Of a DNA stretch of 64,000 nucleotides, positions 24,538 through 60,556 are shown one piece after another. Numbering within the stretch: position 1 is the first letter of the stretch; every line of letters begins with the position of its first letter. Location: positions 4,192,001 to 4,256,000 of the forward strand of contig OZ001293.3 in assembly GCA_963921275.4 (NCBI GenBank), read 5' to 3'. The notes under the pieces were generated by a model that saw nothing but the letters and a program-made list of their open reading frames with translations, was not told the origin of the DNA and ran no database searches. The stretch is from an uncultured Hormoscilla sp. (GTDB lineage Bacteria > Cyanobacteriota > Cyanobacteriia > Cyanobacteriales > Desertifilaceae). Made by a program: the position numbers and the translations under genes.

Positions 24538-25534
24538 ATTAGGGGTCGAGCTGGGAATCGCTTCCCAACCCTCCCTTTCGAACCGTGCATGCGGTTTTCA
24601 TCGCACACGGCTACTGGTTAGTTGGACCTTGTCATTGGCAGGATTACTGGGGATTGCTCCCTTTGTCCCTCTTCTTATGCAGTTTTTCCCCTTTATGGTA
24701 GTCGATAGGACTGTTTCGTATCTAGCTCCGGAAGGTTCGCGGGGGGTATCCAGGAAACCACTTATACCGCTCTTTGCTAACATTGCCCCTGTCTCGTCAT
24801 TAGGGGACTTTTCAAGTTTTACCCGGCTAGAGTTTTAGTCCATATTACAATCTAGGATTTCTCCTGATTTTTGGTACGTATTAGGGATACTTCCACCCAA
24901 GATTTCCAACTATATCCGACCCACGTCTGCCGGTACATTCCTGCACCACTTATACAAGGAGTTACCCCTGTCCTTTGCTTCTTGGGCCATCTCTCTCCAC
25001 ATGGCTTACGCTTATCATCTAACTGGTCCCTATCTCCTGACCACCGGTCGATAGTCGAGTAGTTATGGACAGCACACGTGGAGTTACTTCGTTCCCTGGT
25101 ATCATTTCACGATGTTTTTAGGTCCCTGCTTTACCCCGGGAGCTACTTTGAGTGTGATGTTGGCCATATGCAACAGCCAACACTAGCTACCATTTCCTTT
25201 TTAGGCCAGCGTGTAAGCCTTCTTCCGCTGGTTACACATAACGAGGCTTTCACAGATTCGTTTTCCTAACCATGAGCATCTTTCCTAGCGGAGTTGCCGA
25301 CTTTGGGCTGTCAGCTATCCTACATTTAAGTCCTTGCTCCGCACCACGGTGATGTCACTCCGCAGCACTAAGGACCGGTGTCACCCCCACACCTGGAAAG
25401 AGGGAATTTAACCCCCATGATGACCAGAGTTACCATATTGAGCCTGATTATGATTAGTTTTGGTTCTAAACATTCAGTCCAATTTTGGCTCGGCTTTTCC
25501 GTGTTTGTACAGGTTAGGCCGAAACGAGTCGCAC
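24538..25534 (-). ncRNA. ORF-less group II intron (997 nt), IIB/chloroplast-like appearance
   Basis: 5' GTGCGACTCG. Domain V AGCCGTGTGCGATGAAAACCGCATGCACGGTTC. 3' CTCGACCCCTAAT. Boundaries are exact by comparison with the intron-free IS copy (TTTTGTA|TCAAAAG). Confidence 0.93.
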
Positions 25535-25626
25535 TACAAAATTATATTTTTTTTGTGCTAGACGGCGGGTTGGCTGTTTATAGGTTATAATGTACTAAAA
25601 TAATAGTTAATTGCTGGGGGATGTAG

Positions 25627-26451
25627 ATGATGGAAGATATGATTACAACAATTTTTGTTCTTTGTGACGAGCTACTAAAAGCGTTAAATATAAAAGAAGA
25701 TCCACAAGTAAAAATGAACAATGCCGAAGTGATGACAGTCGGATTAGTTGCTGCATATTTTTTCGGAGGACACCACGATCGCTCTTGTCAATTTATGGTC
25801 GAACACAAGTATATAAAAAATCTGTTAAGTAAAAGTAGGTTCAATCGTCGATTACACAATATTGAGGAACCAATTTGGATGTTTTTCTTCCAAGTTATAG
25901 CTCAAACATTTAAAGAGCTCAATCCGGGTCAAGAATATATTCTTGATAGTTTCCCGGTGCCAGTATGTGATAATATTAGGATTGATAGATGCCAAATTTA
26001 TAACAAGGAAGAATATCGAGGGTATATTGCCAGTAAAAAACGTTATTTTTATGGATTAAGAGTTCATATGTTGGTAAACAAAAATGGAAAGCCAATAGAA
26101 TTTTATCTAGATCCTGGTAGTTATAATGATGTTAAAGTTTTGCAATCTTTTGGCTTTGACTTACCATCAAATTCAATAGTTTATGGAGATAAAGCTTATA
26201 ATGATTATCAATTAGAGGATTTACTAAAAGAGTCGTCAAGTATAATATTAAAACCTTTGCGAAAAAAGAACTCAAAAAGAAAAGAATCTTCTTGTTTTGA
26301 ATATATACAAAAAGTAACAAGAAAACAAGTTGAAACCTGTTTTAGTCGAATCACCAATTTGTTTTCCAAGTCAATTCATGCTGTTACATCTAAGGGATTA
26401 GAGTTGAAAATAATTCTCTTTATCATAGCTTTTTGTATCCAATTTTTATAG
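25627..26451 (+). CDS. IS982-family DDE transposase
   Basis: Near-identical to 6390-7214. Confidence 0.92.
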   Translation: MMEDMITTIFVLCDELLKALNIKEDPQVKMNNAEVMTVGLVAAYFFGGHHDRSCQFMVEHKYIKNLLSKSRFNRRLHNIEEPIWMFFFQVIAQTFKELNPGQEYILDSFPVPVCDNIRIDRCQIYNKEEYRGYIASKKRYFYGLRVHMLVNKNGKPIEFYLDPGSYNDVKVLQSFGFDLPSNSIVYGDKAYNDYQLEDLLKESSSIILKPLRKKNSKRKESSCFEYIQKVTRKQVETCFSRITNLFSKSIHAVTSKGLELKIILFIIAFCIQFL

Positions 26452-59377: not shown

Positions 59378-59718
59378 AAGTTTTAGGGGAGCATGTCACG
59401 CCGATGCATGGTACAATGGGACAGGGGCGATCTAAGGCTGCACCGGCGGTGATTGGGTAAAAACAGGAAGAAATAGAAAGACTTAAACAAAGGCAAGACA
59501 TGTATGTGAAAATTCATCATAGTTTTAACGGATAGAACAAGGATAACCGGTGGCGAAGGCACAGAGGGTAGGAAATCCAAAAAGAAAGACTTGACAGGCA
59601 GCGTGTGAAATGACATCATAGCTTGAAGGGATAGTCCAACCGGTGGCGAAGGCACAGAGGGTAGCCCCTTCGGGTAAGAAGCAAAAATAATAATGGTCGT
59701 GTAGATAGTAGAATAGAA

Positions 59719-60556
59719 GTGCGATTCGTTCAGGCGAAAACCGGTAACGGTGAAAGTGTGACTGGTTTCATTTGCCAGAAACTCTGGTTATCATGGGGTT
59801 AAATTCCCTCTCCCCAGGTGTGGGGGTCGAGGGTACTACCGGTCCTTAGTGCTGCGAAGTCACATCGTCGTGGTGCGGAGCTAGGACTTAAATGTAGGGT
59901 AGCTGGTAGCCTAAGCCAGTGAGACCGCTAGGAAAGATGCTCATGGTTAGAATAAGCGAACTTGTGAAAGCCTCGTTATCCTAAACCAGCGGAATAAGGC
60001 TTATACGCTGGCCCAAAAGGGAAATGGTAGTTAGTGTTGGTCGTTTCTATTGGCCAGCATCGCACTCGGATAACTCCCGGGGTATAGCAGGAGCCTAAAG
60101 GCATCGTGAAATGATACTGGGGAACGAAGTAACTCATCGTGTGCTGTCTTATTTGGACCAGTTAGATGTAAAACGTAAGCCACGATGAGAGAGATAGCCC
60201 GAGAAGCTAATGCCCATGGTAACGCTTGTGGATATGCTGACGCGGGTTGGTGAAAGTAGGAAATCTCGGGCGAAAGTACCCTTAATACGCCCCGAAACCT
60301 CTTGGGCCTGAAAGGCTGTCGAAGGTGGGATTACTGGTAAAACAGACTTGTAAATGGTAATACTAAAGGTTATCTGGGAGTACCACTTACCAACCAGGAA
60401 AGGGGAGAAATTACATGAGATGAGGGACAACAGGAGTAATCCTAAATAATCCTAGCAGTGACAAGGCCCTACTTCCCAGTAGCCGGATGCGGTGAAAGTT
60501 GCATGTCCGGTTTCGAACGGGAGGGTTGGGAAGTGATTTCCAGCTCGACCCCTAAT
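59719..60556 (+). ncRNA. ORF-less group II intron (838 nt) in the 5' leader of the effector gene
   Basis: 5' GTGCGATTCG. Domain V AGCCGGATGCGGTGAAAGTTGCATGTCCGGTTT. 3' CTCGACCCCTAAT. EBS1 TTCTAT (60045-60050) complements the 5' exon ATAGAA. Confidence 0.92.

Follow-up and report, generated by a model that had tools for sequence, protein, structure and literature searches.

Several hundred protein-less group II introns with diversified guide sequences in the chromosome of an uncultured Hormoscilla

We analyzed a stretch of 64,000 nt of DNA (the window) from an uncultured Hormoscilla sp. (assembly GCA_963921275.4, contig OZ001293.3, positions 4,192,001 to 4,256,000 of the forward strand), which contains three complete group II introns without an open reading frame (ORF) for a reverse transcriptase (RT) and a fragment of a fourth. 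Intron 1 is found within an insertion sequence (IS) element, intron 2 within a leucine-rich-repeat (LRR) gene and intron 3 ahead of a gene of an extracellular contractile injection system (eCIS). An earlier note, made from the letters of the window, had proposed that these introns form a family whose members are each retargeted by their own guide loop. We find that they belong to a superfamily of several hundred copies, apparently the largest such load on record for a bacterium. The introns, the fragment and the catalytic domains are located as follows (window positions; introns on the reverse strand are given from their 5' to their 3' end):

25534..24538, (-) strand: intron 1, a complete ORF-less group II intron of 997 nt, which starts with GTGCGA and ends with TAAT
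29176..28306, (-) strand: intron 2, a complete ORF-less group II intron of 871 nt, which ends with ...CCCCATCC
59719..60556, (+) strand: intron 3, a complete ORF-less group II intron of 838 nt
5002..4837, (-) strand: 5' fragment (166 nt) of a fourth intron of the superfamily, covering profile positions 1-171 and starting with GTGCGA (nhmmer, 108.5 bits)
24579..24612, (-) strand: domain V of intron 1 (Rfam alignment)
28348-28381, (-) strand: domain V of intron 2 (Rfam alignment)
60481-60514, (+) strand: domain V of intron 3 (Rfam alignment)

The Rfam model Intron_gpII (RF00029), which describes domains V and VI (D5-D6), matches all three introns above its gathering score of 40, i.e. at 24538-24615(-) in intron 1 (42.1 bits), at 28308-28384(-) in intron 2 (44.4 bits) and at 60478-60556(+) in intron 3 (45.0 bits). 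The distance between the bulged D6 adenosine (24546, 28314 and 60548) and the 3' end is 8 nt in each case. All three introns open with GTGCGA, directly 3' of the exon hexamers TTTGTA, GGATCT and ATAGAA, respectively; GUGYG is the consensus 5' end of group II introns, and GTGCGA is the start of 312 of the 314 full-length copies found genome-wide. Sense ORFs of at least 80 aa are absent from introns 1 and 2, none of the three contains an RT ORF, and the sole ORF overlapping intron 3 is the GTG-extended upstream end of its host ORF. In a whole-length alignment the three introns show a mean column identity of 76%, which bears out the homologous scaffold described earlier, just as the Rfam matches, the GTGCGA starts and the lengths bear out three complete introns without RT ORF. 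The count of four copies in 64 kb has to be amended: three copies are complete, the fourth is the 166-nt fragment and the total for the chromosome runs to hundreds. For 42 representatives, whose identity in pairwise comparison has a median of 63%, RNAalifold gave a consensus of 155 pairs, 90 of them changed on both sides, with 96.8% canonical cells. Among the class-specific covariance models of domains I to IV the best match was group-II-D1D4-2 with 22 bits, under its gathering score of 36. Introns 1 to 3 are confirmed as genuine protein-less group II introns, probably of IIB type.

The exact 3' ends were fixed by tests that go beyond the Rfam match, which taken alone lets intron 2 end with ...CCCCAT (869 nt), whereas the tests put the end two bases further on, at ...ATCC (871 nt). 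Removal of 871 nt yields an ORF of 1071 aa, while removal of 869 nt leads to a stop at codon 82. The 80-nt junction left by removing 871 nt is found uninterrupted at 16 other places in the genome, one of them matching at 80 of 80 positions, and the junction left by removing exactly 997 nt of intron 1 is found uninterrupted at 85 other places. The length of 871 nt for intron 2 thus follows from frame restoration together with empty-site paralogs; such paralogs are available for 108 of 307 copies. In family A, with 121 unique sites, a long ORF across the junction is regained in 25 cases in sense and 24 in antisense once the two additional bases are taken out, compared with only 5 + 10 and 3 + 9 for the other two phases. 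For the families ending in GAC the ORF-restoration test calls for one extra base (35 + 12 versus 5 + 5 and 10 + 7). With these corrections the 3' ends among the 307 copies are distributed as ATCC (138), GACT (88), GACC (60) and TAAT (18). Finally, we compared contigs of four sequencing runs (X1-X4) with positions 23500-30500 of the window and found joints that skip precisely intron 1 (24537 to 25535, 997 nt) and intron 2 (28305 to 29177, 871 nt), both in X1-X3; as these joints have short sides (25-51 nt) and an uncertain intervening sequence, they count only as support for boundaries already fixed by paralogs and frame.

To locate the guide sequences, 858 columns of the intron alignment were scanned for mutual information (MI) with flank positions, using the 281 unique-flank copies out of 314 and assuming no structure. 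The columns of highest MI with exon positions -1 to -6 correspond to positions 324-329 of intron 2 in antiparallel order, with 0.77-0.93 of the cells pairing; this is exon-binding site 1 (EBS1). Exon positions -9 to -13 point to intron-2 positions 257-261 (EBS2, pairing fractions 0.67-0.84). For exon position +1, after correction of the 3' boundaries, the top column corresponds to intron-2 position 364 (EBS3), with 200 T:A, 16 A:T, 9 G:C and 26 T:G combinations against 22 non-pairs. An EBS3 that is distinct from the EBS1 loop and pairs with the first 3' exon base is a feature of subclass IIB (chloroplast-like, CL). The last intron base also had high MI with several columns; these combinations are without a pairing pattern, and we read them as family structure rather than as a gamma-gamma' contact. 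In the three introns of the window the guides and their exon partners (intron-binding site 1, IBS1, for EBS1) are:

25167..25172, (-) strand: EBS1 of intron 1, TGCATA, pairing with IBS1 TTTGTA at 25535-25540 (5/6, including one G-U)
25234..25238, (-) strand: EBS2 of intron 1, TGTGT, pairing with exon positions -13 to -9, ATATA, at 25543-25547 (5/5, with two G-U)
25131, (-) strand: EBS3 of intron 1, A, opposite T, the first 3' exon base
28848..28853, (-) strand: EBS1 of intron 2, AGACTC, pairing with IBS1 GGATCT at 29177-29182 (5/6, including one G-U)
28916..28920, (-) strand: EBS2 of intron 2, TAAGG, pairing with exon positions -13 to -9, TCCTA, at 29185-29189 (4/5)
28813, (-) strand: EBS3 of intron 2, T, opposite A, the first 3' exon base
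60045..60050, (+) strand: EBS1 of intron 3, TTCTAT, pairing with IBS1 ATAGAA at 59713-59718 (6/6)
59979..59983, (+) strand: EBS2 of intron 3, TCCTA, pairing with exon positions -13 to -9, TAGTA, at 59706-59710 (4/5)
60085, (+) strand: EBS3 of intron 3, T, opposite A

The scan thereby recovered, independently, the EBS1 loops that had been picked out in all three introns before, and the sequences themselves show the pair counts reported for them (5/6, 5/6 and 6/6). The flank consensus of the family of intron 1 is the reverse complement of its EBS1 loop, that of the family of intron 2 is GaGTCT, and the EBS1 of intron 3 is found in no other copy. For a genome-wide pairing test we used 299 copies with a hairpin of standard length and a resolved 3' end, representing 267 unique sites (15 of the 314 copies were excluded, 8 because of an atypical hairpin length and 7 because of an unresolved tail). 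Over these sites the mean pairing of EBS1 with its own IBS1 is 5.22 of 6, compared with 2.83 of 6 across families and 1.7-2.8 after shifts of the flank window by 1-4 nt. Across 30 EBS1 families 166 of 180 positions pair with the family's own flank consensus, while shuffled assignments reach 82.9±6.7 (maximum 110) and none of 10,000 shuffles reaches 166. In a consensus fold of 42 hairpin variants, EBS1 occupies a 9-nt terminal loop on top of an 8-bp stem whose pairs interchange between GC, AU, GU and CG, i.e. show compensatory changes, and EBS2 is located in an unpaired stretch upstream of this hairpin. The different loops seen at the same stem are thus the terminal loop of a covarying hairpin, and tabulating the guides against the flanks, as had been suggested, extends the EBS1-IBS1 covariation to the other copies. 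The earlier note had named loops folding outside the EBS1 stem, or further copies lacking covariation, as observations that would speak against its proposal; we find the loop within the hairpin stem and covariation throughout the genome. Its statement that the guides are diversified in EBS1 is correct as far as it goes, yet incomplete, as EBS2 and EBS3 guide insertion too. Judged by these pairings, each intron is aimed at its site by its own guide loops.

The contig to which the window belongs makes up 6.88 Mb of the 7.03 Mb assembled, and the following census is drawn from this one assembly, with nested copies incompletely resolved and family counts dependent on the thresholds chosen. A nhmmer profile of the three introns gave 616 matches, all on the 6.88-Mb contig, which cover 385,071 bases (5.6%). 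They include the 314 full-length ORF-less copies, with nhmmer spans of 789-997 nt. Counting by ends, we found 361 ORF-less-type 5' ends and 379 ORF-less-type 3' ends bearing D5, in addition to 85 weaker domain I (D1) matches of ORF-containing type. A separate Rfam-based search of the genome gave at least 151 matches, with 150 of 867 first-look candidates scored. The contig depth of run X1, which is ~10^4 in intron bins and ~60 in nearby single-copy bins, sums look-alike contigs and is no measure of copy number; it agrees with the census in order of magnitude. The superfamily comprises at least 30 EBS1 variants, and intron 1 is one of 8 copies in its length class. Copies occur on both strands (167 plus, 140 minus) and in all ten deciles of the chromosome, and no replication-strand or positional bias was found among these 307 copies. 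Unique flanks are present in 281 of the 314 copies; the remaining 33 have flanks in common with another copy.

Intron 2 is identical to the master sequence of the 871-nt copies. Of 123 copies of this length, 61 show no difference from the master, 28 a single base change, 21 two and 6 three (116 of 123 at three or fewer), and the 61 identical copies are found in 53 distinct flank contexts. With 61 copies free of any difference across 871 nt, almost no time can have passed since their insertion, and on sequence grounds a very recent multiplication of the superfamily is shown. Copies of 871 nt also form head-to-tail arrays with zero spacer, two in L083 (C1:824934-826675) and three in L084 (C1:5447656-5450268). 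These tandem arrays would be explained by re-invasion of an occupied exon-intron junction, which appears feasible because IBS2-IBS1 is kept there and is followed by the intron's own G, which is able to wobble-pair with EBS3. Nesting is recurrent as well: a composite unit, in which an ORF-containing intron harbors both an ORF-less intron of 835 nt, placed in its domain I, and an 871-nt copy in antisense, was seen about 9 times, e.g. as the 4.1-kb L082 (C1:1056960-1061070). The antisense copy cuts the ORF for the intron-encoded protein (IEP) to 486-507 aa (486 aa in L082). The composites are nearly identical to each other; either the whole composite may be mobile as one unit, or homing into every copy may be very efficient. 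When the genome was searched for sites that pair with the family-A guides at 11 or more positions, 1,721 sites were found, 42 of them occupied. Occupied pairing sites are strongly enriched over random positions, and the targets are far from saturated.

The earlier note had placed the source of the IEP outside the window, and indeed no IEP candidate is found inside it, while the genome as a whole has the group II maturase domain (GIIM) matched 75 times and contains 104 ORF pieces with similarity to IEPs, of which 39 are at least 450 aa long. Using crude patterns of our own making, we found YADD in 36 of these 39 long ORFs and a C-terminal CxxC...H in 25, with both in 22. One IEP of 593 aa matches chain C of PDB 6ME0 ('maturase reverse transcriptase'), which we take to be the Thermosynechococcus TeI4h RT, over its full length (E 1.3e-113) and, with 356 bits, passes the TIGR04416 cut-off of 300. 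A resident IEP may act in trans on the ORF-less RNAs. The window itself contains a split RT-like ORF at 50208-51278 on the (-) strand (RVT_1, YMDD), which adjoins a 199-aa ORF; it scores 98.7 bits against TIGR04416 and is not among the GIIM matches. As a diversity-generating retroelement this ORF finds no support, since there are no direct repeats of 40 nt or longer in 47500-52600.

We consider it highly probable that the introns form a very large superfamily of non-autonomous IIB-type retroelements, which are targeted by their guides and mobilized in trans by IEPs of ORF-containing introns. According to this model each sublineage would carry its own guides in domain I, namely EBS1 (6 nt, in a hairpin loop), EBS2 (5 nt, in an internal loop) and EBS3 (1 nt). 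Reverse splicing would bring the intron RNA into DNA sites that pair with these guides at exon positions -1 to -6, -9 to -13 and +1, and a DNA copy would then be made by the reverse transcriptase/maturase that ORF-containing group II introns in other parts of the chromosome supply in trans. Guide changes would open new sets of targets, so that the superfamily would have split into at least 30 specificities. From the sequences we infer that the intron RNAs presumably still splice, that the burst is probably still going on and that mobilization of the ORF-less introns in trans is likely.

Several observations weigh against this model. The hunt for an ORF-containing parent, also called for earlier, was unsuccessful: no close ORF-containing parent ribozyme was found, and the five ORF-containing 5' halves that were globally aligned are only distant relatives, 66-68% identical to introns 2 and 3, which is below the 76% between introns 2 and 3 themselves. 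In the same vein, the IEP-linked D1 matches score 0.13-0.24 bit/nt compared with ~0.9 for the ORF-less copies. As the global alignments comprised only five halves, a closer parent may have been missed, especially in nested arrays. The 3' end consensus of group II introns is an A followed by a pyrimidine; introns 1 and 3 end with AT, and intron 2 and most families end with CC or CT. Of the 83 genome sites that pair with the family-A guides at 12 of 12 positions (G-U allowed) only 6 are occupied, and as 77 are empty, pairing alone is insufficient for insertion. Antisense copies of family A (24) are as frequent in long ORFs as sense copies (25) among the 121 unique sites, so many copies cannot act as spliceable introns. 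Finally, since 33 of 314 copies share flanks, part of the gain in copies came about when carriers, e.g. IS elements and composite introns, were duplicated at the DNA level.

The last point, taken further, leads to a reading in which copying took place mainly at the DNA level, by recombination, segmental duplication and hitch-hiking in IS elements or composite introns, and the flank matches derive from a few original homing events. Intron 1 within its IS, the shared flanks and the composite units with two nested ORF-less introns that recur about 9 times would fit such a history. We nevertheless regard it as very improbable, given that 281 of 314 copies have unique flanks, that the 61 identical master copies are spread over 53 flank contexts, that the other 7 members of the family of intron 1 are located outside that IS and, above all, that the likeness between flanks is confined to the positions pairing with EBS1, EBS2 and EBS3 and covaries with the guide over 30 families. 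The lack of a close ORF-containing parent, together with the presence of an RVT_1 ORF within the window, could also hint at mobilization by a free-standing RT instead of an IEP, with the ORF at 50208-51278 (-) as candidate. This ORF, however, is split, falls short of the TIGR04416 cut-off and is absent from the GIIM matches, whereas IEPs of the TeI4h type are abundant in the genome; hence we give this idea hardly any credence. A somewhat more serious, though still unlikely, alternative accepts recent guide-directed retromobility and assumes that the burst is finished, so that the copies are fossils and no family is mobile or spliced now. The empty perfectly pairing sites are in line with it, as are the 17 of 39 IEP ORFs that miss one of the two motifs checked (many of them truncated) and the 9 IEP ORFs cut to 486-507 aa by the antisense 871-nt insertion. 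It is at odds with the 61 copies that are still identical over 871 nt, with the conservation of both motifs in 22 IEP ORFs and with the conserved pairing of the ribozyme.

Guide-targeted mobility in trans would be in accordance with a precedent in Thermosynechococcus elongatus. Its TeI3 (ORF-less) and TeI4 (ORF-containing) CL/IIB1 introns amount to 28 copies in 6 families and 1.3% of the genome, with 17 intact ORF-less copies; they are 85-100% identical to each other, ORF-containing parents included, divergence of the EBS sequences allows them to escape target saturation, shared IEPs serve the ORF-less introns, and the proliferation is tied to high temperature (PMC2882425; Mohr, Ghanem, Lambowitz 2010). 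The genome analyzed here is alike in that ORF-less introns outnumber ORF-containing ones, that families are set by diverged EBS1, EBS2 and EBS3 with matching IBS, that IS elements are among the places invaded, as are other introns (twintrons), and that identical copies are found at different sites. The type of IEP is also the same, a resident IEP matching the solved TeI4h RT. The two genomes differ in the number of copies (314 full-length ORF-less copies here versus 17 intact ones), of families (at least 30 EBS1 families versus 6) and in the genome fraction covered (5.6% versus 1.3%). Our introns are also far more diverse, with a median identity of 63% among representatives and 66-68% identity to the ORF-containing ribozymes tested, compared with 85-100%; many copies are found inside genes, half of those of family A in antisense; and the present host appears not to be a thermophile, its nearest named relative being a tropical sponge symbiont. 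By this analogy the mechanism would be one already known from T. elongatus, and it is the size of the load that appears to be new.

Among 1,790 representative bacterial genomes surveyed elsewhere, the maximum is 101 introns per genome (Miura et al. 2022, PMC8919778), compared with 361 ORF-less-type 5' ends, 379 3' ends and 85 ORF-containing-type D1 matches in our genome. Arthrospira platensis, as it figures there, is alike in being a filamentous cyanobacterium with CL-type introns at high copy number. Trichodesmium, with its group II twintron (PMC4649490), is a cyanobacterium that likewise combines nested group II introns with a richness in non-coding DNA, whereas in our genome such nests, and tandem arrays as well, are common and ORF-less elements take part in them. 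In the literature searched we found nothing linking Hormoscilla to group II introns or to introns in general, and the main texts of the Hormoscilla genome papers (PMC6520454, PMC7313196), supplements aside, hold no passage on retroelements. The superfamily is present in all four other genomes of the genus, with 8, 130, 153 and 196 first-look candidates compared with 463 here. Among 36 genomes of other genera, 9 have matches and 27 have none; the matches are short, and those checked (e.g. in G028, G014 and G012) are located in the D5 region. Judged from one protein, LepA, the nearest named relative is a Hormoscilla metagenome-assembled genome (97% identity), and the host probably belongs to this genus of filamentous cyanobacterial symbionts of Dysideidae sponges. 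It is conceivable, though we lean slightly towards doubt, that all of this adds up to the largest bacterial group II load (~360-380 ORF-less introns plus ~85 of ORF-containing type; published maximum found, 101), dominated by an independent clade resembling short interspersed elements (SINEs) that lacks a close autonomous parent, has at least 30 specificities and continues to multiply in a mesophilic symbiont of sponges, one probably restricted to its host, and in the congeners of this symbiont.

Most bacteria carry few group II introns, and the question of how these introns reached numbers able to seed the eukaryotic introns is an open one. The sole well-studied bacterial proliferation, with 28 copies, has been linked to thermophily, and here we are dealing with an apparently mesophilic symbiont lineage; if the reading holds, the load would be a natural model of intron invasion independent of high temperature. 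The system opens up the study of how guide changes lead to new targets, how one protein may serve many degenerate RNAs and how arrays are formed. The cost of the burst to the host becomes testable, family A alone having 24 antisense and 25 sense insertions in long ORFs. Furthermore, compact ribozymes of 830-870 nt with readable targeting rules are candidates for targetron-type tools.

The surroundings of the three introns comprise the following features:

24450..26465: IS element carrying intron 1, with inverted repeats at 24456-24479 / 26443-26466
25627-26451, (+) strand: DDE transposase ORF of this IS (Pfam DDE_Tnp_1)
28070..32156, (+) strand: DUF4347 / leucine-rich-repeat / He_PIG gene with exon parts 28070-28305 and 29177-32156, intron 2 being antisense
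60575..62767, (+) strand: eCIS_core (DUF4157) gene with intron 3 in its leader, in sense

Intron 1 is located between the left IS end and the start of the transposase, in opposite orientation. A contig joint from 24449 to 26466 in X1, X2 and X4 skips 2016 nt, so that both the IS and the intron are gone. An intron-free copy of the same IS is located at 6374-7389. The IS type (6374-7389; 24450-26465) is ~1.0 kb long, encodes a 274-aa DDE transposase and has inverted repeats of 24-25 nt; judging by the junction test, 85 or more additional copies are spread over the genome. Immediately upstream of the IS carrying intron 1, at 23512-24335, there are tandem direct repeats of ~335 nt, two of them 99% alike and a third more distant.

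The gene hosting intron 2 is one of 17 DUF4347-LRR paralogs. Positions 1-69 of the Pfam DUF4347 profile are encoded upstream of the insertion and positions 73-164 downstream of it. Being antisense, the intron cannot be removed from the mRNA of this gene by splicing, so that the paralog is disrupted. Downstream of the interrupted LRR gene, at 32072-33637 (+), an ORF has FG-GAP and RTX repeats and a weak match to TcdB_toxin_midN (E 2.5e-8).

Intron 3 ends 18 nt ahead of the ATG of the eCIS_core gene, just upstream of an AAGGAG motif, and its splicing would take 838 nt from the eCIS leader just before the ribosome-binding site. With intron 2 in antisense and intron 1 inside an IS, it is the only one of the three placed where splicing would matter. 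At the orthologous site of the congener G004 (C35) the exon sequences are uninterrupted, with a difference of a 5-nt repeat, and at that of the congener G002 there is no room for the intron. A 22-nt direct repeat (59550-59571 and 59643-59664) is found upstream of intron 3. The eCIS cluster (26473-49650, 57407-59377 and 60575-62767) comprises genes for Pvc16_N, two sheath proteins, tube, baseplate hub, Baseplate_J, an AAA ATPase and the eCIS_core protein; introns 1 and 2 are located at its upstream edge and intron 3 in its eCIS_core leader. Duplicated small-ORF modules (141/144 aa and 78/79 aa) are located at 52213-53245, 55208-56309 and 57407-57700, and they are followed by repeats of the N-terminal portion of the AAA ATPase gene whose start is at 57407. 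Elsewhere in the assembly, the contig C3 (31,420 nt) has a G+C content of 17.6%, compared with 42-49% in the other six contigs, and may be foreign to the cyanobacterium.

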